From a virus (Duplodnaviria > Caudoviricetes), in the IMG/VR virus record IMGVR_UViG_2595698868_000001, positions 1-64,000 of that record: a stretch of DNA of 64,000 nt, one strand, 5' to 3'. Of this stretch, positions 1 to 16,558 are shown in pieces. Under the pieces are notes generated by a model. The model made no database searches. It was not told the DNA's origin and saw only the letters and a program-made list of their open reading frames with translations. Both the position numbers and the translations under genes were made by a program. The first letter of the stretch is position 1. Every line of letters begins with the position of its first letter.

Positions 1-354
1 GGCCCCGACCCCGAGCGCTCATCTACATTTGGTGCCAATTTCGACATCACCCCATAGATGTGGGGCAAATCTCGGGCTCTAGACACCTGGGATTCTGCGG
101 GGCGCGTTAACCATGTTTGTTTACGTTACTGCGCGCCCGACCGGTAACCCTAATTCGTAGTCTTAAAATCCCCGAGTTTACCTGGAGTATGGCCCAGCAC
201 TACCCGGTCAGACTGCTCCGGTATGGCTGCGAGATCAGCGCGTCGACAGCCTCCTCGACCTGTCTGCGCGCTGACAGCCGCCGGCGCCTGCCCTCAAACC
301 TACGGACCTCCGTCACCAAACCTACGGAGTCCGCCGATCGAGGTCCGCAGGTTG

Positions 355-490
355 GGGACCCTTCAAAATTCACCCTGGGGACCCTTCGAAATTCATGGGC
401 CAGGGACCCTGGAAATTTTACCGGGGGACCCTTCGAAATTCTGCCTCCGGGGACCCTGGGAAATTCTGGAGCCAGGGACCCTGGAAAATT
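355..490 (+). repeat. Six-copy array GGGACCC(T/TTC/TGG)GAAATT, period 22-25 bp
   Basis: Copies start at about 355, 378, 403, 425, 450 and 475. Confidence 0.9.
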
Positions 491-1374
491 CACCCAGATT
501 TCCGGCCCGAATCGCCTCCCATTTAAGCCCAACCCTCAGATCGGCAGAAATATCGGCGATTTTACCCCATTTTGGGCCTAAAATCCCTTAAAAATCAGCC
601 TTTTAGCTCCATTTCAACATCGGCAGCGCCCGCTCCGCGCCCTGCCTGACTGTAGTCATCCTTCAACGCAAATGTGACTCACCGACCTGTCGCCACAATT
701 CCTCCCATCTTTTCAACATGTTACAGAGTCACATCTCAAATCCGGCCACGCCCAGCCCGATCCGGTCATCCGGCCAGACCTTAATCCGGACATATCCGGA
801 CAGAGCCCCATCCCAGAAACCTCAATGAAATCAACACGACCACCTTGCCAAACGTGACTATCCGGACATATCCGGCCACGCAAACGTGACTCTCACCATA
901 TTGCTGCACCGCAACATAATCCCAGCCCGTACAACCCATTTCGGTTGTATTTCGACCTCACAACCGATTTTGGTTGTATCGGCCCAGACACATCCCTCCT
1001 CTCCTGTCAATCCCACCTACCTGCGACCTCCTCGCAGTCCTGAATTGGCAGAAACGAGACTGTGTCGCCGGCGCCGCGCCCCTGCGTTATCGTGCCACGC
1101 TTGCCAGCCCGCCAGGATCGTGCCCTACTGTCTCTCGGGAGCCGGTCTCCCTGGCCTGCACGTCGTAGACGCTAGTCGGTACCCCCTCACCCAGCCCGAG
1201 GGCATTCCAGACGCTAGTCCGCCGCTCGCAGGCGGCTTCGATCGCTCTCTCCCAAGGCGATCGAGGTCAGGCCGGCTCCTATCCCACCTCCAGGAGCCCA
1301 AAACAGGGTCAGGAGCCCGGATTAGCCCGATTCTGGGCTAAAAACGCCTCAAATCGGCCGAAAAACACGACAAA

Positions 1375-1517
1375 ACGCCATTTCATTCGCAAAACTCGAC
1401 GCGATTCCATTAATTTGACGCGACGCCATTCCATTTCGCCGACTCGACATGACGCGATTCCATTCCGGCGACTCGACATGACGCCATTTCATTTTCTTGA
1501 CGCGACGCCATTCCATC
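1375..1517 (+). repeat. Degenerate array GACGC(G/C)ATT(C/T)CATT, about 6 copies
   Basis: Visible directly; GACTCGACATGACGC occurs twice. Confidence 0.8.
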
Positions 1518-1547
1518 CCGCCGGCTCCAGACCACCGCCCAGGTCGA

Positions 1548-1786
1548 TTAGGGTAAACGTCAGGCCCGTTAACCACGTTCGTTAGGGTTACCGGTCCAGG
1601 TAAGGTTACGAATTAGGGTAAACAGGGCGTTAGGGTTAATGCCCCGTTAGGGTTAACACCGCGATGCACACTAACACTACTACTGTTAGGGTTAACGCCA
1701 CTGTTAGGGTTACGAATTAGGGTTAACGCGCCCGGCCGGTATTACTCGGCACTACCCGGTAATACCTAATGGCCATTAGGGTTAAC
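1548..1786 (+). repeat. Array of 9 TTAGGGT(T/A)A motifs
   Basis: Copies at about 1548, 1582, 1613, 1630, 1646, 1686, 1704, 1716 and 1776; an inverted copy lies at ~144-159. Confidence 0.9.
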
Positions 1787-1794
1787 GCCCTGCG

Positions 1795-1865
1795 AGCGCG
1801 CAGCCCCGCCGTTGCGCCCCTACGGTTCGAAGAGCCCGGCCCCTGCCGGGTCCCGCCCGGCTACA
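1795..1865 (-). ncRNA. Candidate LTR sRNA copy 1
   Basis: Directly downstream of a minus-strand CtrA-box promoter (1881-1902); no RBS/ORF; conserved with three other copies. Confidence 0.6.
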
Positions 1866-1931
1866 TCTACACCTTAGCCTCTATTTCTTAACAAACCGTA
1901 AACGCCGGGCAGTTTCCCGCCCGGCGCCGGC

Positions 1932-2186
1932 TTAGTCGTCAGATTGCGCGGCTAGGCCATAATCGCAGTCATCCCACAACCAAGAGAGGATGTAATCCGG
2001 GTTCTTGTTCGGGTGCGCGGCCTCTTGCGCCTCTAGCTCTTCGCGGAAGGTCGCCGCGTCGTCACCTTGGAGCCAAACAGACGTTTGGGCGATCTTGTTT
2101 CGCAGGGTGTACGCCGCGCCGTTGCCATAGCTGTCTAGGGCGTAACGGGTACCTTCCATAATCCGAATCGGGCCTGAAAAAGCCAT
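1932..2186 (-). CDS. Hypothetical early protein
   Basis: ORF with AGGTGA RBS. Confidence 0.75.
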   Translation of the reverse strand: MAFSGPIRIMEGTRYALDSYGNGAAYTLRNKIAQTSVWLQGDDAATFREELEAQEAAHPNKNPDYILSWLWDDCDYGLAAQSDD

Positions 2187-2292
2187 GGATTCACCTTGGA
2201 GAGCGCGCCGGGCGTCTCCGCCCGGCGCTAGGGGTTACCAAAGCGCCCAAAGGATGAGCGCGGCGAGAATGAGGGGCGTTAGCTTGATCAAG

Positions 2293-2619
2293 CTACAGCC
2301 CCAAGGTGTGCGGGACGCCCCAAACGGCCGCCGCGTTGCGCGGGCGGGCGTCCAGAGCGAGGCGCCACCGGTAGAGGTATTCTCGCGCCGCCGCTTGTTC
2401 GGGCGTCCGGCCGTGTCCGATTCGCTCCGCCATGCGGGTTGCGGTATCGGCGCCGGGAACCTTACGAAGAGGCCCGACGATCATAGCTGCGAACAATTCG
2501 CAAGCTTGCTTGATGTCGTTGGCGCGGTCGTTCTGGACGTATCGCAGGAACTGCACAAGGGTCAGGCGAATAGGGCGCCCGAACTCGCGCGATTGCTGCA
2601 CGTCAGATGCAGGGTACAT
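2293..2619 (-). CDS. Hypothetical early protein
   Basis: ORF downstream of the minus-strand promoter at 2680-2701. Confidence 0.6.
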   Translation of the reverse strand: MYPASDVQQSREFGRPIRLTLVQFLRYVQNDRANDIKQACELFAAMIVGPLRKVPGADTATRMAERIGHGRTPEQAAAREYLYRWRLALDARPRNAAAVWGVPHTLGL

Positions 2620-2789
2620 GATGCCTCACGATGTCAAAGAGCGCGGCGGGGTTGTCCGCCGACCCGCTCAATCTCGCATCTATTTCTTAACAAGACGTTA
2701 ACGGCCGAATCTTTTTCGTGTTTACGATTTGTTAAGAAATCGGCTCTAGTGTCTCACGTGTCGGCGCATCCCGCGCCCTGGAGTCTCGC

Positions 2790-2996
2790 ATGTCTCAAGA
2801 CAGCATGAAGATACCCCGCGACACGTTCGCCGTGTTCTGGTCCCTGCCCGGTGACGTGATGCAGTTTCACGGCGACATGAAACGGGCGCTGTATCCGACC
2901 GCCCGCGCCGCCGCTGAAGCCTTCCGCGCCATGTTCCCCCGCAACGTGGTCAAGAGCGTCCGCGACGCGTCCGGCCGCTTCCTGGCCTTCAAGTAG
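2790..2996 (+). CDS. Hypothetical early protein
   Basis: Promoter, leader hairpin and GGAG RBS. Confidence 0.75.
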   Translation: MSQDSMKIPRDTFAVFWSLPGDVMQFHGDMKRALYPTARAAAEAFRAMFPRNVVKSVRDASGRFLAFK

Positions 2997-3005
2997 GAGT
3001 CGCCC

Positions 3006-3296
3006 GTGTCGCACGTCTATGACATCGAATATACCGACACGTTCGCCGGAGAGGCGAATTACTCATGGGTTCGCCGGGCAACCGTGACCATGCCGGAGCT
3101 AACCCATTATGGGTATGACGGCGGGACGAACTACGCCAAGGCGAACAAGGTGTTTAATCGCGAACTCATGAAGCGCGCCAAGGCCGCCATGGGCTTGACG
3201 GGCGTTAAGGGCGTCACCTCGACGCACGGCGACACCCTGGAGTTTCGCCCCTACAGGTCCGCGACGGTCCTTTTCGCCAACTATCGCGACGCCTAA
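3006..3296 (+). CDS. Hypothetical early protein
   Basis: AGGAG RBS, GTG start. Confidence 0.8.
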   Translation: MSHVYDIEYTDTFAGEANYSWVRRATVTMPELTHYGYDGGTNYAKANKVFNRELMKRAKAAMGLTGVKGVTSTHGDTLEFRPYRSATVLFANYRDA

Positions 3297-3361
3297 GGCG
3301 GAGCCCGGCGCCCTCCAGCGCCGGGCGAACGCTTGCCCAGCCCGTTAACCATGTTTTTGAA

Positions 3362-3430
3362 AAACGCGCATCCCCGCCGTAGCGCCCCTACGGTTCGAAG
3401 AGCCCGGCCCCGCCGGTCCCGCCGGCTACA
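3362..3430 (-). ncRNA. Candidate LTR sRNA copy 2
   Basis: Behind minus-strand promoter 3447-3467; ends in a T-run. Confidence 0.6.
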
Positions 3431-3557
3431 GGTCCAATCTAGCGCCCATTCCTTAACAAACCGTAAACGCGATAAAGAATCTCGCGTTTACCTTTTGTTA
3501 AGAAATAGGGTCTAGGGTGTCTTTGTGGCGGGACGGTCCCGCCCTGGAGATGAACCG

Positions 3558-3956
3558 ATGAACGAAGCTCAGACCAACGCCGCCGCCTCGATCCGCGCGA
3601 CCGGTGAAACCATTCTGGCCAAGATCGAAGCCGCCCGCGCCAGCGTCGCCGCGAACCCGCACCTCGCCGGGCAATTCTACCTTGTCGGCGACACGGGCGG
3701 CGGACTCGTCGTCAACACCGATGGCGGCGCCGGCTACCGCTTCGGCGGCATGTTCTCCGAAACGGTGATCGCGTTCCCCGCCGACGCCAAGGAAGAGGCT
3801 TACCGCCTCGCCGCGCACTGGAATCGCCGCCTCTCGCCTAAGGAACGGGCCGCCCGCTGCACCGTCACCGTCCAGACCCGCGAGGAGGCTTGGACCGCCC
3901 TCGAAAAGTCCTGGCGCGAGACGTTCGCCATGATCGAAGCCGCCAAGGTCGCCTAA
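3558..3956 (+). CDS. Hypothetical early protein
   Basis: Promoter, leader hairpin, GGAG; ATG 3558. Confidence 0.8.
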   Translation: MNEAQTNAAASIRATGETILAKIEAARASVAANPHLAGQFYLVGDTGGGLVVNTDGGAGYRFGGMFSETVIAFPADAKEEAYRLAAHWNRRLSPKERAARCTVTVQTREEAWTALEKSWRETFAMIEAAKVA

Positions 3957-4057
3957 GGCGAGCGCCCCGGCCGAAAAAGCCGGGGCGTTTACCTCTTGTT
4001 AAGAAATATCCTCTAGGTTCATCTTGTCGGCGCATCCCGCGCCCTGGAGCAAGTCAC

Positions 4058-4438
4058 ATGGCTTATCGTGGAAAGTACCCCGAGCGCGTGAAATCGTGCG
4101 TCGAAATCGGCCCGAACGATCACATGCTTAAAGGCCCCCTGGCCTTGATGCTCCTGAACGACGGCCGCCGCTTCCACATCCGGACCCGGAACAAGTACCA
4201 CGCCGGTTACGCGATTTGCGGCGAGGAATTCGCCCAGATCAAGCGCGGCGGCTGGTACGACATCGAGCCGGCGCCGGAAGAGCCCAAGCCCGCCCGCAAG
4301 CCTCGCCTGTATTTCGAATATTACGGCGTCACTGTCTGGCGCAACACGTCGCCGGGCTTCGCCCTCCGCTGGAGCGGCGGCGGGTACGCGGCCGATACCC
4401 AAGAGGGAATCCGCCGGCTGATCCGTGAGGGGCGATGA
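4058..4438 (+). CDS. Hypothetical early protein
   Basis: Promoter, hairpin, GGAG; ATG 4058. Confidence 0.8.
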   Translation: MAYRGKYPERVKSCVEIGPNDHMLKGPLALMLLNDGRRFHIRTRNKYHAGYAICGEEFAQIKRGGWYDIEPAPEEPKPARKPRLYFEYYGVTVWRNTSPGFALRWSGGGYAADTQEGIRRLIREGR

Positions 4439-4722
4439 GCAACGCCGCCCGCGCGGAACGCTGGATAGGCCACGTTGAGAAAGGAGTCGGCCGCGCCCTC
4501 GAAAGGGCGGCGCGGTCCCGGCCCTTCGCTATCGAGGCGGAGGCCGCCCCGTTCCTGGCGACCTTCAAGCGGCAGGCCGCCGGACATGCGCAGCGCGCCC
4601 AGACCCTGGCCCTAGCTGGCGACCGCGCCGGCGCCTTGGTCGAGGCGCGACACGCGGAACGGTGCGCCGCGAACCACGCGAGAATTTTGGAGGCCGTCGA
4701 CTCCGTCTTAACCGCTTGTTAA
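4435..4722 (+). CDS. Hypothetical early protein
   Basis: ATGA overlap with the upstream gene. Confidence 0.7.
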   Translation: MSNAARAERWIGHVEKGVGRALERAARSRPFAIEAEAAPFLATFKRQAAGHAQRAQTLALAGDRAGALVEARHAERCAANHARILEAVDSVLTAC

Positions 4723-4778
4723 GCAATAGGCGGTAGGTTGCTCTTGTGGCGGGACGGTCCCGCCCTGGAGAACCTGAG

Positions 4779-5045
4779 ATGAGCACTCTTCCCGTTCGGA
4801 CCCTGGAGCAAATCGGCCATCTGACTTGGGTGGCCACGCGCCGGGGCGGCGGCTTCGATGCCGCGTTCGCCGATAGTGACGACGCCATCCGCCACGCCAT
4901 GGCGACCGGCGGCGCCCTAGGTCACACCCTGCTAGGCTGGATTGACATGTTCAGCCCTTCCGCGACGTTCGAAGCGAACCAAGCGCAGGTTGTGGCCTTC
5001 CTTGATCGCGGCGACGAATTCGACCGCGTGATGAGCGAAGCCTAA
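4779..5045 (+). CDS. Hypothetical early protein
   Basis: Promoter, hairpin, GGAG. Confidence 0.75.
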   Translation: MSTLPVRTLEQIGHLTWVATRRGGGFDAAFADSDDAIRHAMATGGALGHTLLGWIDMFSPSATFEANQAQVVAFLDRGDEFDRVMSEA

Positions 5046-5112
5046 GGCGAGCGCCCCGGCCGAAAAGCCGGGGCGTTTACCTCTTGTTAAGAAATAGCCT
5101 CTAAGGTGATCA

Positions 5113-5183
5113 CGTACCCGGCGGGACCGGGCGGGCCGGGCTCTTCGAACCGTAGGGGCGCAACGGCGGGGCTGCGCGTTTTT
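5113..5183 (+). ncRNA. Candidate LTR sRNA copy 3
   Basis: Sole content between promoters 5076 and 5209; no ORF; ends in TTTTT. Confidence 0.65.
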
Positions 5184-5278
5184 CAGCGCCCCGAAAAAGT
5201 TTCCCGCGTTAACTTCTTGTTAAGAAATAGGCGGTAGGTTGCTCTTGTGGCGGGACGGTCCCGCCGGAGAAAAACGAC

Positions 5279-5716
5279 ATGACGACGCAAGCCGCCCTCG
5301 CCGCCCGCCTGGACCGCGCCGCCCGGATCATCCGGGGCGAAGTCCCGGCCTCCAAGCGCAAAGAGCGCAAGGCCCGCCGCGCGTTTCAGCGCGCCCTCGC
5401 CGGAATGGACATTCCGACCTATGTCGCGTGGCTGAACGATCCGGCCGACACCCTCCGCCTCACGGATGACGTGGAGCATTGGGCGTCGTTCGGGATTACG
5501 AACGCCCTTCAACTCGGCGACTATCTGAACGGGTGCGTTCGCCGGGAAATCGAAAAGGACTCGCGCTGGAGCGGGTACGAAGACGAGGCCGACGACTTCG
5601 GCGGCTTCGGGGGCGATGATGACGGCGAGGGCTACAGCTTCGACCGCGACCGCGCCGCAGGGATCGCCGCCGACAAGGCCAAGCGCGACGCCATGCACGA
5701 AGACACCCCTTTTTAA
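5279..5716 (+). CDS. Hypothetical early protein with acidic C-terminus
   Basis: Promoter, hairpin, GGAG. Confidence 0.8.
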   Translation: MTTQAALAARLDRAARIIRGEVPASKRKERKARRAFQRALAGMDIPTYVAWLNDPADTLRLTDDVEHWASFGITNALQLGDYLNGCVRREIEKDSRWSGYEDEADDFGGFGGDDDGEGYSFDRDRAAGIAADKAKRDAMHEDTPF

Positions 5717-5767
5717 CCCCCTAGGGCGGCGGATCGGCCGCCGCCCGCCTCTCTGGAGCGCAAGCCC

Positions 5768-6202
5768 ATGACCCGCCACATTCTCGCCCTCACGACTCCG
5801 GAATATGACGCCGTTCTAGCGGCCGTCCGCGTCGTCTCGTTCGCCCTGGAACGCGGCCAAGAAACCGCCGACGTAGCCGGCGACTTTCTCGACATCGCGA
5901 CCAATGGCGGCGAACACGCTTACGCCAGCCCGGCCGACATCGGCGCCCGTCTGGGCGACCTCGCCGACTCGTGGCAAGCGAACCCGGACACGCCCGGAAC
6001 CGGGGCGAACCCGGTGCAAGTCATCATCGCTTCGCACGGCGGGGACGTGATCGCCGCCGCCCGTGGTCTGGGCTACATCATCCGCAAGGATGCGGCCGGG
6101 CGCTACTATCCCGCCCAAGACCTCGAATCGGCGTCGCGCCACGGCTACCACGACACCCGCGAAGCCGCCGCCCGCCTTGTCGTGGAAAGCGCTTTTCTTT
6201 AA
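5768..6202 (+). CDS. Hypothetical early protein
   Basis: Leader hairpin and GGAG. Confidence 0.8.
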   Translation: MTRHILALTTPEYDAVLAAVRVVSFALERGQETADVAGDFLDIATNGGEHAYASPADIGARLGDLADSWQANPDTPGTGANPVQVIIASHGGDVIAAARGLGYIIRKDAAGRYYPAQDLESASRHGYHDTREAAARLVVESAFL

Positions 6203-6283
6203 CCTCTTGTTAAGAAATAGAGGCTAGAAGGAAAGCACGGGCGGCGGATCGGCCGCCGCCCACATCCCCTGGAGCGCAAGCCC

Positions 6284-6864
6284 ATGTCGCAACGCTACCG
6301 TCTCGCCGACCAAATCAAGGTTGCGAACGACGTTTCAAAGCTGCTCTATGCAGCCGCCGAAGCGCTGGAGCCGAACAATCAGAACGTGACGCCGCAAGCG
6401 CGCGCCGAACTCCGCGAAAGCTGATCGGCGCGAGCGCCGGCGCCCTGACGCACAAGCCGCCGGCTGAAGTCCTGAAAACCCTCGTTTGGGTTGTCGAGTT
6501 GGCGCAAGATCGCGCCACCGGCTCGGACTTTAATTCGTCTCAAGAGGCCCTGGACGAACACGACGCCCTAGCCTTCGTCGCCGACTGGCTGGAGGCGCAA
6601 GGCGAAGACGTGAGCCCGATTCGGATGGCGCAACCGTCCGCCGAACGCCTCGCGGCCCTTCGCCAATTCGCCGCCGACGAGGAAGCCGAGCGCGCCGCCC
6701 TGGAGCGCACGCAAGGGCGATTCGTCGTCGTTCACGGTGTCGCCGGTTCGCCCATGGGCGACCGCCTCCCCGGCCGCTTCGAAACCTACGACGAGGCCGA
6801 AGACGCGGCGGAGCCCTACCGCAAGCCGGGGACGTGGGCCTATGTTGACGAGTTAGCCTCGTGA
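6284..6864 (+). pseudogene. Early gene split by an apparent 1-nt frameshift at ~6418
   Basis: ATG 6284 has an RBS and stops at 6424; the -1 frame continues open into ORF 6499-6864. Confidence 0.55.
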
Positions 6865-7033
6865 GCGCGCGCCCCTACGTCACAACGGCCCGTTGCCCCG
6901 ATGGCGTCTTTTACGGCGCCGCCTGGAGGGCGGACGGAACCCTAATCGCCATGTCAGAACCCAAGGCTTCGCGCTCCGCCGCGCGTCGCTGGGCTCTGGC
7001 GCAACTCTAAACCCCTCAGGACAAGGAGTCCGC

Positions 7034-7270
7034 ATGACCACGACCGACAAGACCCCGACCACGCGCCGCAAGCTGGCGACCGTGCAACGCGAGCAAGACG
7101 CCAAGGCCGCGCCCAAGAAAGCGCCCGTCAAGGCCAAGGCCGCCCCGGCTCCGAAGGAAGCCGCGCCCAAGGCCACCCGCAAGACCAAGACCCCGCCGCC
7201 GGCCGCGCCGCGTCCGAAGGTCCGGGGCCTGAAAGCCGCCCTGTTCGGCGGCGCGTTCAACCGCCTGTAA
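7034..7270 (+). CDS. Lys/Ala/Pro-rich histone-H1-like small protein
   Basis: AAGGAG RBS; KAAPKKAPVKAKAAPAPK low-complexity sequence. Confidence 0.7.
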   Translation: MTTTDKTPTTRRKLATVQREQDAKAAPKKAPVKAKAAPAPKEAAPKATRKTKTPPPAAPRPKVRGLKAALFGGAFNRL

Positions 7271-7364
7271 AAACTTCCGGGCGTTTACCTCTTGTTAAGA
7301 AATAGGAGGTAGGTTCTAGTCACGGGCGGCGGATCGGCCGCCGCCCAAACTCACGGGAGGCCAC

Positions 7365-8066
7365 ATGGCCCGCAAACTGACTCTCTCGCTGCTCTCGAAC
7401 CCCGATTTGAGCATGGCGAACGTTACGACCGCCTCGCAACGTATCGAGGACTGGTCGACGGTCCTTTACGGTGACGAGGACGGCCGGGGCGAAACGGCTG
7501 ATATCGTCATGCCACCGGTCACGTACGGCGCCATCAATGACCACGCCGCCGACCTGCTGACCGAAGCGCAAAAGCGCACCGCCGACCGCTCGCCGGATCG
7601 TGAGGCGCCCCGCGACCTCGCCGACCGTTTCGAGGAAACCGAAGGTTTCCACGAATGGAAAGAATCGTTTTCGCCGATGATGAATTTCGTTTGGCCGGTG
7701 TGCCTGCCCTATCGCACCGACGCGGAACAAGTCGCCGCCCTGCTGCAAGAATTCTGCCCCGTCATGACTCTGGTCAGCTTCGGCGATGGCTCGCCGTTCT
7801 GCGAAGAGGAACACGGCTTCGCCCTCTCGGGCGGCGGAATGAACCTCGCCGACCAAATCGCGACGGCCTATCTCTGCGCCGGCGTCGTCCCGCCCTCCGA
7901 ACTGCTGGAATCGCTCGCCGGCGTCATCGGCGATTATCAGCGGAACAAGGTCGGGCCGGTCCTGCGCAAGGCCTATCAGCGGGCCGCCGAATACCACGCG
8001 CACCGGGTCAAGGCGATCCGCCGCGAAGCCGCCCGCGTCTTCGCCAAGCCCAAGACCGAAGGCTAA
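7365..8066 (+). CDS. Hypothetical early protein
   Basis: Promoter, hairpin, GGAGG. Confidence 0.85.
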   Translation: MARKLTLSLLSNPDLSMANVTTASQRIEDWSTVLYGDEDGRGETADIVMPPVTYGAINDHAADLLTEAQKRTADRSPDREAPRDLADRFEETEGFHEWKESFSPMMNFVWPVCLPYRTDAEQVAALLQEFCPVMTLVSFGDGSPFCEEEHGFALSGGGMNLADQIATAYLCAGVVPPSELLESLAGVIGDYQRNKVGPVLRKAYQRAAEYHAHRVKAIRREAARVFAKPKTEG

Positions 8067-8134
8067 GCCCTGGAGGCCCGGCGCACCCCGCCGGGCCTTT
8101 AGCGTGTCTGGCGCGTTAACCATGTTCCGAAATT

Positions 8135-8203
8135 GCGGGCAGGTTCGCCGTAGTGCCCCTGCCGTCCGAAGAGCCCCGCCGCGCCCGATCCTGCCGGGCC
8201 ATG
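8135..8203 (-). ncRNA. Candidate LTR sRNA copy 4 (diverged)
   Basis: Behind minus-strand promoter 8219-8240; both hairpins kept with substitutions. Confidence 0.55.
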
Positions 8204-8330
8204 GGTACACCCTAGCCCCTATTCCTTAACAAACCGTAAACGTGAAAAAGAATCTCGCGTTAACCTCTTGTTAAGAAATAGACGGTAGGTTCATCCCTGC
8301 CGGCGCATCCCGCGCCCCTGGAGAACGCAC

Positions 8331-8978
8331 ATGGCCCGCACGGTCACTAAGCAAGTTTTCGAGTATGACGAACTGACCCCCGCCGCCCAAGAAAAGGCGC
8401 GCGACTGGTTCCGCGACATGCAAGACCGCTCCGGCGATAACAGTTTCGCCGAACCGGTCTTGGAGGAAGTCGCGCGCATCGCCGACATGCTCGGAATCGC
8501 CCTCAAGATCGACCGCGACGGCGAGCCGGCGATTCTCTGGTCGGGCTTCTACAGCCAAGGCGACGGCGCCAGCTTCGAGGGCCGTTACGCGGCCCCGGAA
8601 AAGCCGGCCCTGGAGGCGATCAAGGCCGAATTCCCTTCGGAACTCAAGCTGCACGCCATCGCGGCCGAACTGGACGCCTTCCAAGATCGCCGCCGCCGCC
8701 GACTGGTCGCGGACATCACCCGCAACGGCCGGACGAACTACGTACACCCCTACACCGTCGATATTGACGTTTTCGTCACCGACGACGACGGCGAGGAGTC
8801 GAACGTAGACGACACGACCGAAAAGGCTATCGCGGCCGAACTGCGCAACTTCATGGACTGGATTTGGCGCCAACTCATGGCCGCCTATGAGGCGGAGCGC
8901 GAAGACGACGCTATTGCCGACAATATCCGGGCCAATGAATACGAATTCGAGGCGGACGGCCGCCGGACCCGCGACTAA
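8331..8978 (+). CDS. Conserved phage protein (family often labelled 'antitoxin of toxin-antitoxin stability system')
   Basis: Motifs YDEL..AAQEKAR.W, SGFYSQGDGASF, IRANEYEF..DG, recognised from memory. Confidence 0.65.
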   Translation: MARTVTKQVFEYDELTPAAQEKARDWFRDMQDRSGDNSFAEPVLEEVARIADMLGIALKIDRDGEPAILWSGFYSQGDGASFEGRYAAPEKPALEAIKAEFPSELKLHAIAAELDAFQDRRRRRLVADITRNGRTNYVHPYTVDIDVFVTDDDGEESNVDDTTEKAIAAELRNFMDWIWRQLMAAYEAEREDDAIADNIRANEYEFEADGRRTRD

Positions 8979-9028
8979 CGCAACCGGGCGGACTTCACGG
9001 CCCGCCCAAGCCCTGGAAAGGCCCTGAA

Positions 9029-9472
9029 ATGAACATGGCTCGCAAGGAACAAGCCGGAAGCTACCAAATCGGGATTTGGGGCGTCGAGAGGATCGGCCGG
9101 GGCGTCTGGGAAGCCCGCGCCAACGGCCCCGGCACGCTAGGCGACGGCTCGCCGCAAACCTTCCCTTCGCTGGGCGCCGCACACCTCGCCTTGACTGGCG
9201 AGCCCATGAGCGAAAGGCCCGTCAAGCCGGCCGCCGCTCCGAAGCCCCCGCGCCTGCCGTGGTCTGACCTCAAGGTCGCCTATGGGCTGGACAACCCGGA
9301 CCGCTTTTGGCGCGCCCTGGACGCCGGCAAGCTGGACCTCCCCGCCGGCTGGACCGTGAACGAGACGGATTGCAGCGGTTGCCGGTGCGTCGTCGTCTTC
9401 CGGGTCGAAACCCTGCCAACGGTCGAGGATGGCCGGAAGGTCGCGAAGATCGTTCGCCGCTTCGGTCGCTAG
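9029..9472 (+). CDS. Hypothetical early protein
   Basis: ORF in cassette. Confidence 0.7.
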   Translation: MNMARKEQAGSYQIGIWGVERIGRGVWEARANGPGTLGDGSPQTFPSLGAAHLALTGEPMSERPVKPAAAPKPPRLPWSDLKVAYGLDNPDRFWRALDAGKLDLPAGWTVNETDCSGCRCVVVFRVETLPTVEDGRKVAKIVRRFGR

Positions 9473-9534
9473 TAACCTTTTGTTAAGAAATGGCCTGTAA
9501 GGTCACATCATCGACCCCTCGGGAGACACCCGCC

Positions 9535-10104
9535 ATGATGAACAATCCGCACTCGCTCGCGATCCTCAAAATCGCGAACCGCATCCTTCCGCTGACGCAC
9601 CTGCACGCCACGGAACAACGCCGCCCGGCTATCGACATCATCGGCGACCTGTACAAGGTCGCGGACGACATCGACAAGGAAGCCGCGCCGGCCGTCACCC
9701 TGCCCGCCGGTAACGAGACGCTGGCCAAGCTGGGCGCCGCCGTCGCGCTGGCTCGCCTGGAACTCGAAAGCGCCTATCAGCGGACCGAAAGCCTTAGCGA
9801 GCGTCACCGCCTCGCGCCGCTCATCGCGACGATGTCGGAAGCGCTCAAGGCGTACCGCGCCGACCCGGCGACGCCCAAGGCCCCGGCCGCGCCGCTTCCG
9901 CACGCCTTCGCGACGATCCCGGACGGTTCGGCCCTGGAGCGCGCCACGGCCGCCGGAATCGCGATCTTTCAGGCCGAAGGCTCGACGTTCTACACGCCCG
10001 GCCCGTCCGCCAACTTCACCCGCGACGACTGGCGCGGCCCGTACTACGGCGCGGCCGAAGCCGCCCGCGCCGCCCTGGCCGAACGCTCCGGCAAGGCGGC
10101 CTAG
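9535..10104 (+). CDS. Hypothetical early protein
   Basis: Promoter 9472 and GGAG. Confidence 0.8.
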   Translation: MMNNPHSLAILKIANRILPLTHLHATEQRRPAIDIIGDLYKVADDIDKEAAPAVTLPAGNETLAKLGAAVALARLELESAYQRTESLSERHRLAPLIATMSEALKAYRADPATPKAPAAPLPHAFATIPDGSALERATAAGIAIFQAEGSTFYTPGPSANFTRDDWRGPYYGAAEAARAALAERSGKAA

Positions 10105-10107
10105 CCT

Positions 10108-10605
10108 ATGCCGTACATCCCTGACGAACATTTCGCCTATTGCGTGGAGCAAGCCGCGCCTTCGCCCTGGATGCACCTCGTTCGCGGCGCGCTCAAGCTC
10201 TACGACGCCGGCCACGGCTCCAAGTCGTGGCAAGCGGTCCACGGGCGGCAAGCCATCGGCGAAGCTATGGTTGCGCTCAACGGCGCGCCCCTGGCGTTCT
10301 TCGGCGGCCTGACTCGTGACGAGTCTTACCGCTACAAGGGTGACGACCGCCCGGCGTCGGAAGTCCCGGACGCTCTGGAGACGCTCGCCGCGCTCCTCGC
10401 GCCTCTGGAGCAAGCGCCGGAGGAAGTGGCGGACCTCGTCGCCAAGATCGCCGCCGCGCAAGCCATCATCGACGAGGACGACGCCAAAACGTCGCAACTC
10501 GACATGATGAACGGCCACGAACGGGCGCACGTCGAGTGCGACCTGTACCGGGCAAAGCTCGCCCTGGCGAACCTTCAACTTCAAGCCATCCGCAAGGAAG
10601 CCTAA
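10108..10605 (+). CDS. Hypothetical early protein
   Basis: Operon spacing of 3 nt. Confidence 0.8.
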   Translation: MPYIPDEHFAYCVEQAAPSPWMHLVRGALKLYDAGHGSKSWQAVHGRQAIGEAMVALNGAPLAFFGGLTRDESYRYKGDDRPASEVPDALETLAALLAPLEQAPEEVADLVAKIAAAQAIIDEDDAKTSQLDMMNGHERAHVECDLYRAKLALANLQLQAIRKEA

Positions 10606-10608
10606 CCG

Positions 10609-11079
10609 ATGAGCTACGACACGAAAACGCTCGCCGCGCAAACGATCATCGACGCGCACACCGCCGGCCGTGGCCTGGAGGATGACCAGAGCCGGGCAAC
10701 CGACCTCTACCACGTTCTCGACTCGCTGCTGACGTGGTGCGACTTCCACCGCGTGGATTTCGACGCCACGCTTTCGGAACTTCGCGCCGACCTCGCCAGC
10801 GACAAGCCGACCGAAACCGCTAAGACGGTCGCGGTAACGCTGGACAAAAGCGACGCCGTGGAAGTCCTGGCGCGCTTCTACACGATTGCGGAAGCGGAGG
10901 CCTATCTAGCCGGCCCCGGTATCGACGCCGAAGCCCTCCACGCGGGGCGCTACGGTATCGACGCGCCGCACGGGCTGGGCCATGACTCCGAAGCCGTCCC
11001 GCTGGCGCGCAAGCTGGGCTATCTGGGCAAGGATTGCCCGGCCGCCGCCTTCGCCTTCCTCTCGACTCGGGAGCCCTAG
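10609..11079 (+). CDS. Hypothetical early protein
   Basis: Operon spacing of 3 nt, AAGGA RBS. Confidence 0.8.
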   Translation: MSYDTKTLAAQTIIDAHTAGRGLEDDQSRATDLYHVLDSLLTWCDFHRVDFDATLSELRADLASDKPTETAKTVAVTLDKSDAVEVLARFYTIAEAEAYLAGPGIDAEALHAGRYGIDAPHGLGHDSEAVPLARKLGYLGKDCPAAAFAFLSTREP

Positions 11080-11082
11080 CCC

Positions 11083-11523
11083 ATGACCAAGCGCAAAGCG
11101 TGGCCCGCCCCGAACCTCTTCGCCCGCTACAGCGTCGCCGGCCTCGCCGACGCGGACAAGATCGCCCGCCGGCCGTCCCTGGCCTGCATCCGGCATTTCG
11201 TCCGGGAAGCCGCCAAAGCCAAGGCGGACGCCGCCGCCCGCCTCGCTGATCAAAAGTGGATGCGGGACGCCTCGGACATGGCGCAAAGCTGGACCCGCGA
11301 CACGGCGAGCCGGAGCATTCACGCCATCGCCCGGAAGGCCCTGGAATATGCCCGAATGCGGGCGTTCCTGACTGTCTCGCCGGAGCGGGCCGGCTCCTAC
11401 GCGCCCGCCGGCTGGCCTATCGACCGCCCGGCCCGTGACCAGTGGCAAGCGCTCAACCCGCCGCCGGCCCGTGACTACGACTCGTTGATCGGCCGCGCCT
11501 CTCGCGCCGCCGGCTGGCCCTAA
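11083..11523 (+). CDS. Hypothetical early protein
   Basis: GGAG RBS. Confidence 0.75.
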   Translation: MTKRKAWPAPNLFARYSVAGLADADKIARRPSLACIRHFVREAAKAKADAAARLADQKWMRDASDMAQSWTRDTASRSIHAIARKALEYARMRAFLTVSPERAGSYAPAGWPIDRPARDQWQALNPPPARDYDSLIGRASRAAGWP

Positions 11524-11539
11524 CCGGAGGAACCCGCCC

Positions 11540-11827
11540 ATGGCTGACCTGATCAAGCTCAACCCCGAACCCGCCAACATGACCGCCGTCAAGCTCGGCG
11601 CCGTCACCCTGTATTTCAGCTATCAGACCCTTGTCGGGTTCACGTGTCCGCATCTGGGCACGGTGTCCAATCCGGACGGCAAGGGCTACGGCCGAACGAC
11701 CGCCGGACATATGACGAAATTCGGCCTTTCCGGCGCTCGGACCACGGCGACGGAGTCCGATTTCCAGACCCTGGCGCTTCGCGCCGTTCAAGGCCACGTC
11801 CGCGACATCGGCGGCCTGTTGACCTAG
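11540..11827 (+). CDS. Hypothetical early protein
   Basis: GGAGG RBS; LYFSY.T.V motif. Confidence 0.8.
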   Translation: MADLIKLNPEPANMTAVKLGAVTLYFSYQTLVGFTCPHLGTVSNPDGKGYGRTTAGHMTKFGLSGARTTATESDFQTLALRAVQGHVRDIGGLLT

Positions 11828-11841
11828 CCGGCCCCGTACAA

Positions 11842-11942
11842 GAGTCACGTTTCGGGCCTAACCTGACTCCCAAGGAGTCACATTTTCGCCGAACCCTGAC
11901 TCTGCCACGATTTCCCGTCACGTTTCAGACCTAACGTGACTC
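11842..11942. promoter_or_regulatory. Three tandem GAGTCA-N16-TGACTC palindromic operators
   Basis: 11842-11869, 11875-11902, 11916-11942; the same element occurs at 39623 and 48758. Confidence 0.75.
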
Positions 11943-12132
11943 ATCCGATTTTCTCAGTAGAAACAAGGAGTTAACTTGCGCTTCATCGAACACGTGTTGG
12001 AAGGTTCGGGCCTCATCTTCGCCATCGTGATTCTTTTTCTGCTGCATTAACCTCTTGTTAAGAAATAGGGGTTAGGTCTAGAGGGGTCAGGCGCACACCG
12101 CGCCGGCCCCTCTTTCTGTTGGAGCGCAGACA

Positions 12133-12624
12133 ATGCCCGACTACAAGACGAACGATCCCAAGGGCTACATGGGCGACCCCCGCCGGGGCGCCGCCATGGG
12201 CCGCCCGACCTATGCGCCGGACGCCGCCGGCTGGACCGTGGAAGGCCTGGAAACGGCCGCCGCCCTCGAAGAGGACCGCGCCCGGATCGCCGAAGAGCAA
12301 CGCGAGAACCGCCCCGGCGACGGCTACAAGCGCCAGTGCTGGGAAGCCGCCGCCGCGTCGTTCCGCAAGGAAGCCGAACGCCTCCGTTCGCTCATCCCGG
12401 CCGCCCGCGCCATGCTCGCCGCCTCGCCGAAGATCACCCTTCAACGCGTCCGCCTGGACTCGGGCGGCTACGACTCGAACGGAACCTATTTCGGGCATGA
12501 CCTCCCCCTGTATTGGGCGGCGGACGAGTCCGGCGACTATGACGCGACGTTCCGCGCCGCCGACCGCAACGCGGCGAAGGCCATCGTTCGCGAGACGTAC
12601 CCCGGCGCCCGCTTCCACAACTAG
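12133..12624 (+). CDS. Hypothetical early protein
   Basis: Promoter 12047 and GGAG; RVRLDSGGYD..G.YFG motif. Confidence 0.85.
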   Translation: MPDYKTNDPKGYMGDPRRGAAMGRPTYAPDAAGWTVEGLETAAALEEDRARIAEEQRENRPGDGYKRQCWEAAAASFRKEAERLRSLIPAARAMLAASPKITLQRVRLDSGGYDSNGTYFGHDLPLYWAADESGDYDATFRAADRNAAKAIVRETYPGARFHN

Positions 12625-12701
12625 CTGGCGTTAAGGGGTTGTTAAGAAATAGCCGGTAGGTTCATCCCTACCGGCGCACCCCGCGCCCTGGAGAAAATCG
12701 G

Positions 12702-13550
12702 ATGACCTCGCAACTCTGCATCGCCGACGAAAACGCCGCCCTGGATTTCCTGGCGCGCGCTGTCCCCGCCCTCTGTGACGCCGGCATAATGCCGCCGACG
12801 CTGGATATCCTGGACTCGCTCGCCGCCAATCCGAACGCATACGGCCTTAGCCGCGTCCCGACCCTGGCGCCCCTCGCCGCCGAATGGGCGGGGCCGTATC
12901 AGACGCAAGCGAACGACGGCGAAGGCCCGACCACGGTCCGGGCTCTGATCGTCGCCGCGCTGGGCGCCGATGAGTCCGGCAACTTCGATATCGGGTTCCG
13001 CACCTACGCCGTGAACGACACGGAACACTGGAATCTTGCCGGGACTCCTCTTGAGGGCGTGCCGGCCTATAGCCTGTATTTGATCCGCGAAGGCGAGCAA
13101 ACTTACATGTGCTCGCTCACGCCATCGAGCTACGCCTATGGGATTCAGAACGTGTTCCTCTATCCCGATCAAGAGGGCTTGCCGGCTGTCAATGAGTACG
13201 GGCAAACGGCGGTTGAAGCGTACATGGACGCTGAAAACCCCGAATATGAGGCCGTCGAAGATACCTATTTCGGGTATATGGGCGACCGCGAAGCCCTGGA
13301 CCGCCGCGAAGCCGAAGAGGGCGACGTTTCGGAGCGCCTTAGCTTCGATAAGTCGGTTTTCCGTGTGGACCTCTCCACGCTGGACGGGTTCGCCGCGTCG
13401 CCGGCCAATCCCCGCGAAACGACCGCGTTCGCCGACTTCGAAACCCTCGCCGCCGCCTTCTACAAGGCCGCGTGCGACTCGGCTTGGGAGGACGCGAAGG
13501 AATACGTTAGCGGCAACGCTACGGAACCGCGCATTTTAACGGGTTGTTAA
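12702..13550 (+). CDS. Hypothetical acidic early protein
   Basis: Promoter, hairpin, GGAG. Confidence 0.85.
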   Translation: MTSQLCIADENAALDFLARAVPALCDAGIMPPTLDILDSLAANPNAYGLSRVPTLAPLAAEWAGPYQTQANDGEGPTTVRALIVAALGADESGNFDIGFRTYAVNDTEHWNLAGTPLEGVPAYSLYLIREGEQTYMCSLTPSSYAYGIQNVFLYPDQEGLPAVNEYGQTAVEAYMDAENPEYEAVEDTYFGYMGDREALDRREAEEGDVSERLSFDKSVFRVDLSTLDGFAASPANPRETTAFADFETLAAAFYKAACDSAWEDAKEYVSGNATEPRILTGC

Positions 13551-13613
13551 GAAATAGCCTGTAGGTTCTCCCATGGGCGGCGGATCGGCCGCCGCCCTAC
13601 CGGAGCGCCTAAC

Positions 13614-13826
13614 ATGGCTTTCTCGACCGCCGCCCTTAACGCTCACGTCGCCGAAGTGGCGGAATGTGAGTCCGACCTGAACGAAGCCTTTGAGGCTTTC
13701 GACCGGGGCGAAGCGCCCGACCGTGGCGACTGCGATTATGCGTTTCTGAAGCTGGAAACGGCGGAAATGCACCTCGCGCAATTCCTGGCGCCGGTCCTGG
13801 CGTCGCCGATCTTCGTTCACGCCTAG
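13614..13826 (+). CDS. Hypothetical early protein
   Basis: Promoter, hairpin, GGAG. Confidence 0.75.
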   Translation: MAFSTAALNAHVAEVAECESDLNEAFEAFDRGEAPDRGDCDYAFLKLETAEMHLAQFLAPVLASPIFVHA

Positions 13827-13837
13827 GAGGGCCTGAC

Positions 13838-14053
13838 ATGTCCAAGCGTCCCGATTTCACCGGCCGCCTTCCCGTCCGCGACGACGTGCAAACGGTGACG
13901 TGTCACCGGCCGCCGACGCGCTCGGAAATCAGCTTTGGTCACGGCGCGACGCATTACCGGGATTTCCCGGTTGCGGCCGTGTGCTGGGCCGGAACCCGAT
14001 TCAAGAAAACGTGGTTCGTCGCCGACGACGGACTCCGTTATTACACGTCTTAA
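13838..14053 (+). CDS. Hypothetical early protein
   Basis: AGGAGG RBS. Confidence 0.8.
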   Translation: MSKRPDFTGRLPVRDDVQTVTCHRPPTRSEISFGHGATHYRDFPVAAVCWAGTRFKKTWFVADDGLRYYTS

Positions 14054-14130
14054 CCTCTTGTTAAGAAATAGGCCCTATGGTCTATTTCGAGGGCGGCGGA
14101 TCGGCCGCCGCCCGAACCGGAGTAGACGAG

Positions 14131-14562
14131 ATGTCCGCCCGCTTTCAAACCGCCGCCGCCGCCCGTCAATTCATGCTCGGCGGTAACGCCGTGGTCACGC
14201 TGCAAAGCGAAAAGACCGGCGCGCGCTTCACCTACAAAATCAAGGCCGCCCCTGACGGCGCGGTGTCGTTCGTTAAGCTCCTGACGGGTCAGGACAACGA
14301 ATCGGATTACGCCTATATCGGGTTGATCCGGGGCGCTCAATTCGCCCGGACGGCTAAGGCCCGCGTCACCGCCGACGCCCCTAGCGTCAAGGCCCTGGAA
14401 TGGGCCTGGAAGGCGCTTAGCGCGGATCGCCTCCCCGATACCCTGGCGATCTTCCATGAGGGCCGTTGCGGGCGCTGCAATCGCCTCCTGACGGTCCCCG
14501 AGTCCATCGAGTCGGGCTTCGGTCCCGAATGCGCCGGCCGCGTCCTGCGCCAAGCCGCCTAA
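14131..14562 (+). CDS. DUF6011-like zinc-binding phage protein
   Basis: HEGRCGRCNRLLTVPESIESGFGPEC motif. Confidence 0.8.
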   Translation: MSARFQTAAAARQFMLGGNAVVTLQSEKTGARFTYKIKAAPDGAVSFVKLLTGQDNESDYAYIGLIRGAQFARTAKARVTADAPSVKALEWAWKALSADRLPDTLAIFHEGRCGRCNRLLTVPESIESGFGPECAGRVLRQAA

Positions 14563-14609
14563 CCCTCAACGGGCGGGCCTCGCGCCCGCCCAAGCCCTGG
14601 AGTCCGCTC

Positions 14610-14840
14610 ATGGCCTATTACCCGCCCGTCAAAGGTCAAGTTCACCGTTTTCGCGATTCGGTCTGCCTGTACGTCGGGACCGGCGAGACGGTTTACGTCT
14701 CGGCCGCCGACGCCCGCAAGATCGCCCGCGCCCTGAACCGCGCCGCCAAGTCCTGCACCTCGGAGCCGTTCGCCCAAAGCTCCGGCCTGACGTTCTCGTT
14801 CTCGTTCGCGGACGGCCGCGAAAAAGACCTCCCGCGTTAA
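14610..14840 (+). CDS. Hypothetical early protein
   Basis: Hairpin and GGAG. Confidence 0.75.
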   Translation: MAYYPPVKGQVHRFRDSVCLYVGTGETVYVSAADARKIARALNRAAKSCTSEPFAQSSGLTFSFSFADGREKDLPR

Positions 14841-14918
14841 CTTGTTGTTAAGAAATGCCGTCTAGGGTGACGGCATGGGGCGGCGGATCGGCCGCCGCCC
14901 TAGCTGGAGCGAAAGCCC

Positions 14919-15218
14919 ATGACCAAGACCAAGCGTCCCGCCGGCTACTACTCGAAAGCCGCCCGTGAAGCCCGCGCCCTGGCTCGCCAGCGCCGCGCCG
15001 CCGCCCGCCTCAACTGGTCGGATGAAAAGCGCGTCAAGATGGCCGCCAAGTCCGCCAAGTTCTTCGCCAAACACGCGGCCCGCGCCGCCCTGGCGGGTAA
15101 CGAAAAGGAAACCCGCCGCCTATCGGTTCACATGACCCGATTCGACAACGTGCGCCGCGCGCTCGGCGCCGTCCTGGCGGTCCGCGCCGCTCGCTTCCGC
15201 ATCGAGGCCGCCGCTTAA
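14919..15218 (+). CDS. Basic hypothetical early protein
   Basis: Promoter, hairpin, GGAG. Confidence 0.75.
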   Translation: MTKTKRPAGYYSKAAREARALARQRRAAARLNWSDEKRVKMAAKSAKFFAKHAARAALAGNEKETRRLSVHMTRFDNVRRALGAVLAVRAARFRIEAAA

Positions 15219-15248
15219 GGCGGCCTCACAACCTCGAAAGGACAACCC

Positions 15249-15446
15249 TTGAAACACGCCGCCGACGTTCTCGCTATCGCCGCTGTCTGCGCTTTCCTCG
15301 GCTTCCTCGCGTGGAATAACGCGCATCCGCCCATGATCGCCGTGGGCCTGGACTGTCGGGGCGAAGCCGTCCGCGTCTACGGCGCCGACGACGCCCCGGA
15401 AGCCTCCAAGGTCTGCCGGACCGTGGAAATCCACAAGGCCCCCTAG
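15249..15446 (+). CDS. Small membrane-anchored protein
   Basis: AAAGGA RBS, TTG start, hydrophobic N-terminus. Confidence 0.65.
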   Translation: MKHAADVLAIAAVCAFLGFLAWNNAHPPMIAVGLDCRGEAVRVYGADDAPEASKVCRTVEIHKAP

Positions 15447-15539
15447 AAAGTTCGGCCTCTTAACTTCTTGTTAAGAAATGGCCTCTAGAGTGACTACATG
15501 GGCGGCGGATCGGCCGCCGCCCGAACCGGGAAAACCAAG

Positions 15540-15920: not shown

Positions 15921-15994
15921 CCCCTGACCCTGTAGCGTAACGGGGCGGCGGATCGGCCGCCGCCCCTAACCCCCTAGGACTGGAGTCCTTCGCA

Positions 15995-16497: not shown

Positions 16498-16558
16498 CCT
16501 CTTGTTAAGAAATACCCTCTAGGGTAGGCACATGGGCAAGGCCCTAGGAGACAAAGCG

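Follow-up and report, generated by a model that had tools for sequence, protein, structure and literature searches.

A multi-copy non-coding element behind CtrA-box promoters of a phiCbK-group Caulobacter phage, probably a new phage RNA

Small RNAs encoded by phages are, to our knowledge, few and mostly from enterobacterial phages, and the phiCbK group provides the standard phage of the Caulobacter cell-cycle model. We analysed a window of 64,000 nucleotides, comprising positions 1 to 64,000 of the IMG/VR record IMGVR_UViG_2595698868_000001, which sequence comparison places at the left end of the genome of a giant Caulobacter phage from that group, and we describe within it a non-coding element of about 70 nt, present in four copies, each of which stands behind its own promoter. 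Closest to this arrangement among the described systems are the promoters of the phiCbK-like phages themselves: according to the portion of Mascolo et al. (2022; PMC9437464) available to us, predicted CtrA sites are concentrated there in the intergenic spaces of the terminal repeat, CtrA binds such sites, and the gp005 and gp018 promoters of phiCbK, when measured in reporter assays, showed strong activity in the wild type and almost none in a temperature-sensitive ctrA strain. Those promoters share with the ones described here the TTTA/TTAA-N7-TTAA sequence, the concentration in the terminal repeat, and the intergenic placement; they differ in being handled, in that portion of the article, as promoters of protein genes, whereas our four units have no gene behind them. 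In the same text the terms “sRNA,” “small RNA,” and “antisense” do not occur; the available part of Gill et al. (2012; PMC3556154) mentions neither the promoters nor the element; and a literature search found no small RNA reported for the phiCbK group, supplementary files, which lay outside that search, being places that may hold transcript tables.

As a conserved, promoter-linked non-coding unit the element is real, its copies, their link to a promoter, the absence of a reading frame, the conservation, and the strand-specific pairing all being direct observations. The 22-nt core word GGCTCTTCGAACCGTAGGGGCG occurs exactly three times against an expectation of 0.00; a fourth, diverged copy was recovered with a degenerate pattern, which brings the total to four in the whole record of 279,967 bp, and nhmmer recovered the identical set. 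The start of the copy lies 33–36 nt past the -10-like box of its promoter in all four. Each copy is composed of a first hairpin, whose stem changes from copy to copy around a loop that is CGGGA in three instances and CAGGA in one, and of a core with a possible second hairpin, GCTCTT-N8-AGGGGC (4 of 4), followed 3 nt further on by ACGGCG (Table 1). A run of five U residues is found after copies 2 and 3 only. Behind the four promoters there is no ribosome-binding site (RBS) or open reading frame (ORF), nor do the copies have a frame or a start codon in common: copy 1 reads AUG UAG, copy 2 lacks an AUG near its 5' end, and the copies differ by indels whose lengths are not divisible by three. An initial annotation of this stretch had described four promoters followed by a ~70-nt element in place of an RBS and ORF, the stem and loop of hairpin 1 in each copy, the second hairpin with its ACGGCG, and a terminal U-run in two of the copies; our analysis bears out each of these statements, the hairpin-1 sequences being exact in all four.

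By their sequence the promoters of the four copies are of the CtrA-box class already described. With up to 2 mismatches allowed, the promoter core TTGTTAAGAAATAG is present 22 times versus 0.02 expected, all the occurrences falling within 1881-16808, and the layout consists of TTTA or TTAA, N7, and TTAAG, then 9 nt to a GCTANAWC-like -10 box; TTTA-N7-TTAA is present in all four copy promoters, and among the 22 in the window a first half of the T[TA]A[AC] type precedes TTAAG. Of those promoters, 20 are followed by a GC-rich stem of 5 bp or more whose beginning falls no further than about 10 nt from the expected transcription start, while the remaining two have one of 4 bp (read by eye). These leader hairpins fall into classes—GGCGGGA-CGG-UCCCGCC, GGCGC-AUCCC-GCGCC, and GGGCGGCGG-AUCGG-CCGCCGCCC—after which 18 of the 22 leaders continue with a GGAG-like Shine-Dalgarno sequence and an ATG; in the four copies the core occupies that place. 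The promoter-hairpin layout is identical in the phages CcrPW, Ccr2, BL64, BL57, and RBC57. Because a 5' GC hairpin in the same position thus follows all 22 CtrA-box promoters, hairpin 1 is not specific to the element: the initial annotation had presented it as a feature of the latter, and it is indeed real, but it is generic to the promoter class and missing from the copy of Brevundimonas phage Bajun, which retains the core. Since 5'-terminal stem-loops have an established role in mRNA decay, we infer by analogy that hairpin 1 would serve as a 5'-end stabiliser. The loops AUCCC and AAUCCC, for their part, recur in leaders on different stems and in different phages, which recurrence hints that the loop itself is recognised by something.

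A covariance model, whose use on phage genomes the initial annotation had suggested, was built from seven copies and run at E ≤ 1e-5 over 142,002 bases, consisting of the window plus six loci. The search returned 14 promoter-linked matches in 7 phages: four in the window phage, four in CcrPW, two in RBC57, and one each in Ccr2, BL64, BL57, and Bajun. When the whole records of five of these phages were searched, the extra matches were second terminal-repeat copies only and the rest scored below 20 bits; none of the copies is annotated in the 6 public records examined. Orientation and promoter distance are fixed in all 14, and the promoter is a CtrA box in 13 and a different promoter-like sequence in the Bajun copy. 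The positional types are likewise kept across phages: type A enters a GTTAACCCTAA array, type B faces a conserved gene for a protein of 96-97 aa, type C is a plus-strand copy with a gene on either side, and type D faces another gene. The core of the Caulobacter phages is 93-98% identical to the query over 42-44 nt—above the 83-86% DNA identity of the neighbouring conserved region—and that of Bajun is 87% identical over 38 nt amid surroundings that cannot be aligned.

Outside this group the element was not recovered. The initial annotation had recognised no family, and Rfam 15 gave no match on the elements either at the gathering score or at E up to 10 over positions 1-9000 of the window; a search of viral contigs returned only CcrPW. 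The 22-nt pattern was encountered at 12 genome and 14 metagenome loci from scattered phyla, where the model matched almost nothing but the pattern itself (the exceptions being locus L016 at 27.8 bits, L023 at 25 bits, and L058 at 21.2 bits), the flanks were unrelated, and several loci resembled coding sequence; on account of those flanks, of the confined match, and of the scattered taxa we rejected them as copies. In 401 alphaproteobacterial genomes we observed only GC-rich partial matches of 21-32 nt, in 7 genomes.

Covariation was scored on the model-guided alignment of 13 distinct rows, which alignment is fitted to the model and leans to structure. Hairpin 1 has 5 pairs with all cells paired, of which 2 change on both sides (3 cells; 5 of 500 shuffles do equally well), and an extra pair is available in six copies, namely four of type A and window copy 4 with its nearest relatives. 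Hairpin 2 (GCUCUU/AGGGGC, with two U-G pairs) is invariant in all 14 copies, the variation between the two arms being confined to the 8-nt loop, which invariance is compatible with a hairpin and proves nothing. The covarying hairpins of the initial annotation are accordingly retained in modest form for the first and not for the second, which never varies. The two U-G pairs of hairpin 2, in every copy, and the G-U pair in hairpin 1 of copy 4 can form only on the promoter-sense strand. Among other candidate structures we discarded a GCGCA/UGCGC stem before the U-run, broken in 8 of the 13 distinct sequences; a long-range CGUAG/CUGCG stem, in which 88.7% of cells are paired and 2 pairs changed on both sides, a score reached by 3 of 500 shuffles, and which conflicts with hairpin 2 and includes a G-G mismatch in 5 of the sequences; a CCGUAG/CUACGG stem, broken in the copies with CAACGG, in BL57, and in Bajun; and a G-quadruplex, for which copy 3 alone has four short-looped G-tracts. 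The core is G-rich on the RNA strand (G over C skew of +0.11 to +0.24), and our reading is that it is conserved as sequence and not as fold.

Given that the 45-base core is almost unchanged in related phages and that the copies are placed to be fired by CtrA promoters, the element is probably a new phage RNA. That it acts at the level of RNA or of transcription as a real non-coding unit we consider likely; that it is an abundant, CtrA-driven, trans-acting small RNA recognised by its sequence is the reading that we favour, although we would give it somewhat less than an even chance; its transcription, its length as an RNA, its action in trans, and its partner are all things that we infer. Under this reading each copy would be a small stand-alone transcription unit, in which a CtrA-activated promoter for the host RNA polymerase, with the CtrA box over the -35 region and a GCTANAWC-like -10, would fire a non-coding RNA whose initial ~25 nt fold into a 5' GC hairpin of the type found on every early mRNA of the phage and whose next ~45 nt, the G-rich, weakly structured, and almost invariant core, would be the working part, read by sequence rather than by fold. 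The dosage would be four per terminal repeat, and eight per virion DNA if both repeats carry it, as they do in CcrPW; production of the RNA would begin once the phage DNA meets CtrA in the swarmer or predivisional cell; and the RNA would bind, in trans, a factor that is conserved in both Caulobacter and Brevundimonas. At copy 3 the promoter is overlapped by a terminator, and the unit is followed by a separate promoter for the next gene; therefore an effect on that gene seems unnecessary there, and only the RNA product seems to need the promoter of the copy.

Several results weigh against this small-RNA reading. On a plain MAFFT alignment RNAalifold found 0 of 17 pairs with a compensatory change and a covariation term of +0.34, and the single-sequence folds were no stabler than shuffles, whether for the elements (z = +0.58, -0.20, +2.01, and +0.74) or for longer versions (z = +1.53, -1.10, -0.54, and -1.35). 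A simple terminator scan called no canonical terminator at any of the four 3' ends; a U-run of at least 4 stands at the 3' place in only 7 of the 14 copies, where, on examination for an Hfq-type 3' end, the preceding stem measures 4-5 bp and its loop 10-14 nt; and the type A copies continue straight into the repeat array. As to targets, the complements of 12-14 nt in the phage genome are scattered and none recurs for the invariant block, and the core paired with an alphaproteobacterial rrn operon, taken as a proxy, no better than did shuffles, the energies moreover looking inflated.

The initial annotation had offered two mechanisms of its own for such an RNA. That of a regulator in trans of the phage's own leaders started from complementarities that do exist in the sequence: GGCGGGAC could pair with the 3' arm GTCCCGCC of the class-A leaders, and the GGGA of the hairpin-1 loop with the UCCC of the AUCCC leader loops. 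The best match of this kind joins copies 2 and 3, over 12 nt, to the leader belonging to the gene at 5279. The class-A leaders, though, bear the same GGCGGGAC arm in cis, so that the matches are largely a by-product of shared hairpin-arm sequence; and in BL64 (CAGGA) and Ccr2 (GGA) the loop-loop match is of only 3 nt while their leaders retain the AUCCC/AAUCCC loops. Regulation of the leaders by the element, on this evidence, appears possible but weak. A Csr/Rsm decoy, the other proposal, is unlikely because no CsrA was detected: PF02599, which matched E. coli, B. subtilis, and T. maritima in a control set of 14 genomes, has no match in either the phage record or the Caulobacter vibrioides control genome, and each RNA would offer a single hairpin-loop GGA (present in 13 of the 14 copies).

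For the partner of the small RNA the leading candidate would be the boxA-reading NusB-S10 machinery, because the core carries the boxA-like GCUCUUCGAAC just past the hairpin, at a distance of 8-9 nt. This motif agrees with the alphaproteobacterial rrn-type boxA at 8 of 11 positions, and its GCUCUU is invariant in all 14 copies. A better boxA is found in the leftward operon whose promoter is at 2680: its leader reads a hairpin, GC, and then GCUCUUUGACAUCG at 2632-2642 (-); GCTCTTTGACA at those positions is the sole exact match in the window, where 0.74 would be expected even with one mismatch allowed, and it is kept in CcrPW (~2917, -) and BL64 (~3243, +) despite a different hairpin and downstream ORF. 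Of 5 alphaproteobacterial genomes examined, 2 have the same 14-mer class, GCTCTTTGACATTG, upstream of the 16S gene at a distance of about 260-320 nt. Because of its position and of its likeness to the E. coli rrn boxA, which reads GCUCUUUAACAA, we take GCTCTTTGACATTG to be the rrn boxA read by NusB-S10. The phages with this leader motif thus appear to use boxA, and the exact boxA of the leader suggests Nus-factor antitermination of a phage early operon. As to the rrn leader of the host, the family RF01519 had a match in the Caulobacter vibrioides control and none in the 151 + 5 other genomes searched.

The element itself fits that machinery less well. Its motif departs from the rrn-type boxA at 3 of 11 positions, a distance from the local rrn form about equal to that of the boxA of the lambda nut sites from the E. 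coli form; its GCUCUU is predicted to sit paired in hairpin 2, where a boxA of consensus GCUCUUU(A/G)AC(A)A would be expected to be single-stranded; the four copies, compared with 5 rrn leaders among which the host's own was not included, scored not above shuffles (z of -0.6 to 2.6); and the local alignments to those 5 leaders do not align at the boxA. An involvement of Nus factors or boxA of any kind seems to us unlikely. Still less probable, and indeed quite doubtful, is the most specific version, in which the element—hairpin, boxA-like GCUCUU, and G-rich tract—would be a CtrA-timed mimic of the rRNA-leader antiterminator that, in up to eight copies, soaks up NusB-S10 and its partners. If that mimicry were true, host rRNA transcription would lose its protection against Rho while the boxA-bearing leader of the phage would still compete, and the host would be shut off by an RNA decoy of the elongation machinery tied to the host cell cycle.

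The alternative that survives best, though we regard it as unlikely, would be a signal of the nut, put, or rrn-leader type that acts in cis on the polymerase as it transcribes from these promoters. The hairpin and the boxA-like core would either recruit Nus factors to the polymerase or affect it directly. The polymerase so modified would resist Rho and terminators and would cross long untranslated stretches, that is, the antisense strand of genes and the left-end arrays in the leftward direction and, from copy 3, the early genes in the rightward one. The placement would suit such a signal—promoter-proximal, ~70 nt in length, in several copies and in both orientations, like nutL/nutR and putL/putR—and so would the sequence of hairpin, GCUCUU, and G-rich tract, which repeats the boxB-boxA-boxC order of the rrn leaders, the true boxA in the leader of the leftward operon, the fact that no phage examined lacks a leftward copy on the right-hand side of the GTTAACCCTAA-type arrays, and 3' ends that are at best weak terminators. 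What is missing is a payload: copies 1, 2, and 4 face no immediate co-directional gene, copy 1 having ahead of it only non-coding repeats, about 1.8 kb of them, and then the end of the genome, and copy 3 is followed immediately by the next gene's own promoter, whereas an antiterminator of the boxA class is expected to head a long transcription unit that has to escape termination; the motif, besides, is not a consensus boxA, and the element showed no wider likeness to the rrn leaders examined.

An improbable alternative is that of convergent or antisense control, in which the leftward promoters would fire into the 3' ends of rightward early genes, as lambda OOP does against cII, and would limit read-through or lower the expression of the upstream gene at high CtrA. 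Copies 2 and 4 do point at the ends of two such genes, 3006-3296 and 7365-8066; in 5 phages the type B copy keeps its synteny with one gene of 96-97 aa (85-93% identity); and the Bajun copy is likewise convergent with its upstream gene. Nevertheless, an identical invariant core stands before unrelated genes, and therefore antisense pairing with those genes cannot explain the core; copies 1 and 3 are co-directional with the upstream gene; BL57 keeps its copy while the first 12 kb of its record have no annotated gene of that size (294 nt); and the element ends about 60 nt past the stop codon of 3006-3296.

Equally improbable is a site acting as DNA, in which the conserved 45 bp, lying between the full CtrA box and a GTTAAC half-site, would be recognised by a protein of the phage or of the host, possibly for replication, packaging, or CtrA-dependent architecture, the transcript being incidental: invariance without covariation is the pattern of a protein-DNA site, the location is the terminal repeat beside iteron-like arrays, and GTTAAC lies roughly 10–30 nt past the core or U-run in all four copies (4 of the 13 in the first 17 kb), yet the fixed orientation and promoter distance of all 14 copies, a core without dyad symmetry beyond TTCGAA, U-G and G-U pairs kept on the transcribed strand only, and the G over C skew of that strand speak for RNA. 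The half-site is about 100-105 bp from the CtrA box of the promoter, and 117 bp at copy 3; past copies of types B and D its sequence is GCGTTAACCATG, which resembles a CtrA half-site and with which the TGCGTTAACCAT repeats quoted in the available portion of PMC9437464 are comparable.

The small-RNA reading would matter because a non-coding, CtrA-wired unit that is the best-conserved stretch of an otherwise fast-changing terminal repeat would give the proposed CtrA-dependent “lytic deferment” of these phages a component made of RNA. It is directly testable as well: the element is present in Ccr2 (4074-4145, minus strand), whose record places that phage in the genus Shapirovirus, and an RNA-seq time course of phiCbK infection exists (PMC10688885).

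Table 1. Positions of the four copies, their promoters, and their parts (window coordinates; parts are listed in the RNA sense).
Feature	Position	Strand	Details
Copy 1, RNA sense	1870 to 1793	-	
Promoter, copy 1	1871..1902	-	TTTA (1902-1899)-N7-TTAA (1891-1888), -10-like GCTAAGGT (1878-1871); CtrA-box class according to the available portion of PMC9437464
Hairpin 1, copy 1	1845..1861	-	GCCGGG-CGGGA-CCCGGC
Core, copy 1	1797..1843	-	boxA-like GCTCTTCGAAC (1835-1825); possible hairpin 2 GCTCTT (1835-1830)/AGGGGC (1821-1816)
3' side, copy 1		-	no U-run; enters GTTAACCCTAA repeat array; first GTTAAC at 1781-1786
Copy 2, RNA sense	3435 to 3356	-	
Promoter, copy 2	3436..3467	-	TTTA (3467-3464)-N7-TTAA (3456-3453), -10-like GCTAGATT; divergent from + promoter at 3495
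Hairpin 1, copy 2	3412..3426	-	GCCGG-CGGGA-CCGGC
Core and U-run, copy 2	3360..3411	-	core 3411-3365, U-run 3364-3360; then GTTAACCATG half-site 3344-3353
Orientation, copy 2	3360..3411	-	convergent with conserved 96-aa gene 3006-3296
Copy 3, RNA sense	5107 to 5185	+	
Terminator hairpin of the upstream gene, overlapped by the promoter of copy 3	5049-5078		
Promoter, copy 3	5076..5107	+	TTTA (5076-5079)-N7-TTAA (5087-5090), -10-like TCTAAGGT (5100-5107)
Hairpin 1, copy 3	5117..5131	+	CCCGG-CGGGA-CCGGG
Core and U-run, copy 3	5133..5183	+	core 5133-5178; GCTCTTCGAAC 5140-5150; AGGGGC 5154-5159; U-run 5179-5183
Next CtrA-box promoter 3' of copy 3	starts 5208		
Copy 4, RNA sense	8208 to 8128	-	
Promoter, copy 4	8209..8240	-	TTTA (8240-8237)-N7-TTAA (8229-8226), -10-like GCTAGGGT; divergent from + promoter at 8268
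Hairpin 1, copy 4	8183..8199	-	GCCCGG-CAGGA-UCGGGC; G-U pair possible only on - strand
Core, copy 4 (most diverged)	8136..8182	-	GCTCTTCGGAC; 3' part GGCGAACCTGCCCG; AAUUUC replaces U-run; GTTAACCATG half-site 8115-8124

Regarding the genome setting, the first 9 kb of the window have their top match in Caulobacter phage CcrPW (86% identity across 35% of the query) and partial matches also in Ccr2, BL64, RBC57, and BL57; in those records the equivalent region is the long direct terminal repeat. The first 1.8 kb are non-coding repeat arrays, and from ~1.9 to 17 kb there follow small genes of unknown function: among 18 neighbouring ORFs the sole Pfam match was DUF7302, below threshold, and the neighbouring proteins gave only unknown-function families in PHROGs and only viral hypotheticals in an Atlas search. 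One of them, the 96-aa protein of unknown function encoded at 3006-3296 (+) and assigned to phrog_22729, has an identity of 85-93% across five phages, its gene being always convergent with the type B copy; its single-sequence fold was poor (mean pLDDT 60.9). The direct repeats of the non-coding left end form three arrays (354-496, 1374-1527, and 1547-1790), with units of a GGGGACCCTTCGAAATTC type at a spacing of about 23-25 nt, of a GACGCGATTCCATT type at 24/29 nt, and, in the third, at least six units of (A/G)TTAGGGTTAAC; transcription from copy 1 would enter this third array. Such arrays may be iterons for an origin, for packaging, or for protein binding. A GCGTTAACCATGTT-like word (TTAACCAT, resembling a CtrA half-site) was observed near the left end, beside the arrays, past copies 2 and 4, and at ~17.2 kb (105-116, 1567-1578, 3343-3354, 8114-8125, and 17217-17225), the last coinciding with the end of the series of CtrA-box promoters. 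Each of the three back-to-back divergent promoter pairs has a GAATC midway along its short spacer, which is rich in A/T (2707-2711, 3477-3481, and 8250-8254); GAATC is an instance of GANTC, the CcrM methylation word. A tRNA cluster occupies 59240-62908 (+), with 15 genes according to ARAGORN and 13 at the Rfam threshold; ARAGORN placed tRNAs at 59-63 kb only and none at the elements.

Compared with known systems, the element resembles several and coincides with none. With the decoy RNAs CsrB and RsmZ it has in common a GGA in a hairpin loop, those RNAs bearing many such loops and this one a single loop. Lambda OOP and P22 sar likewise have a dedicated promoter, measure about 70-80 nt, and, like our copies 2 and 4, are convergent with the upstream gene; they are, however, single-copy and overlap their target gene, whereas the core described here is identical before different genes and lies outside the coding region. 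The rrn leaders with their boxB-boxA-boxC and the lambda nut sites share the hairpin, the GCUCUU motif, the G-rich tract, the promoter-proximal position, and the several copies in both orientations, and differ in that the element reads GCUCUUCGAAC and not GCUCUUUGACA, that most of its copies head no operon, and, for the rrn leaders, that no wider likeness to the 5 examined was found. Similar too are the put RNAs of HK022—non-coding, ~70 nt long, with two proposed stem-loops downstream of the early promoters and a left and a right copy—but these are characterised by two conserved stems and work in cis ahead of long operons, whereas here no operon follows, 2 of the 5 pairs of hairpin 1 covary, none of the 6 of hairpin 2 varies, and the other candidate stems are broken in 5-8 of the 13 distinct sequences. 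As far as we searched, then, the element is new: its kind, a promoter-proximal phage regulatory RNA, is a known one, and its form—multi-copy, CtrA-driven, and free-standing, with an invariant, unstructured core—is not.

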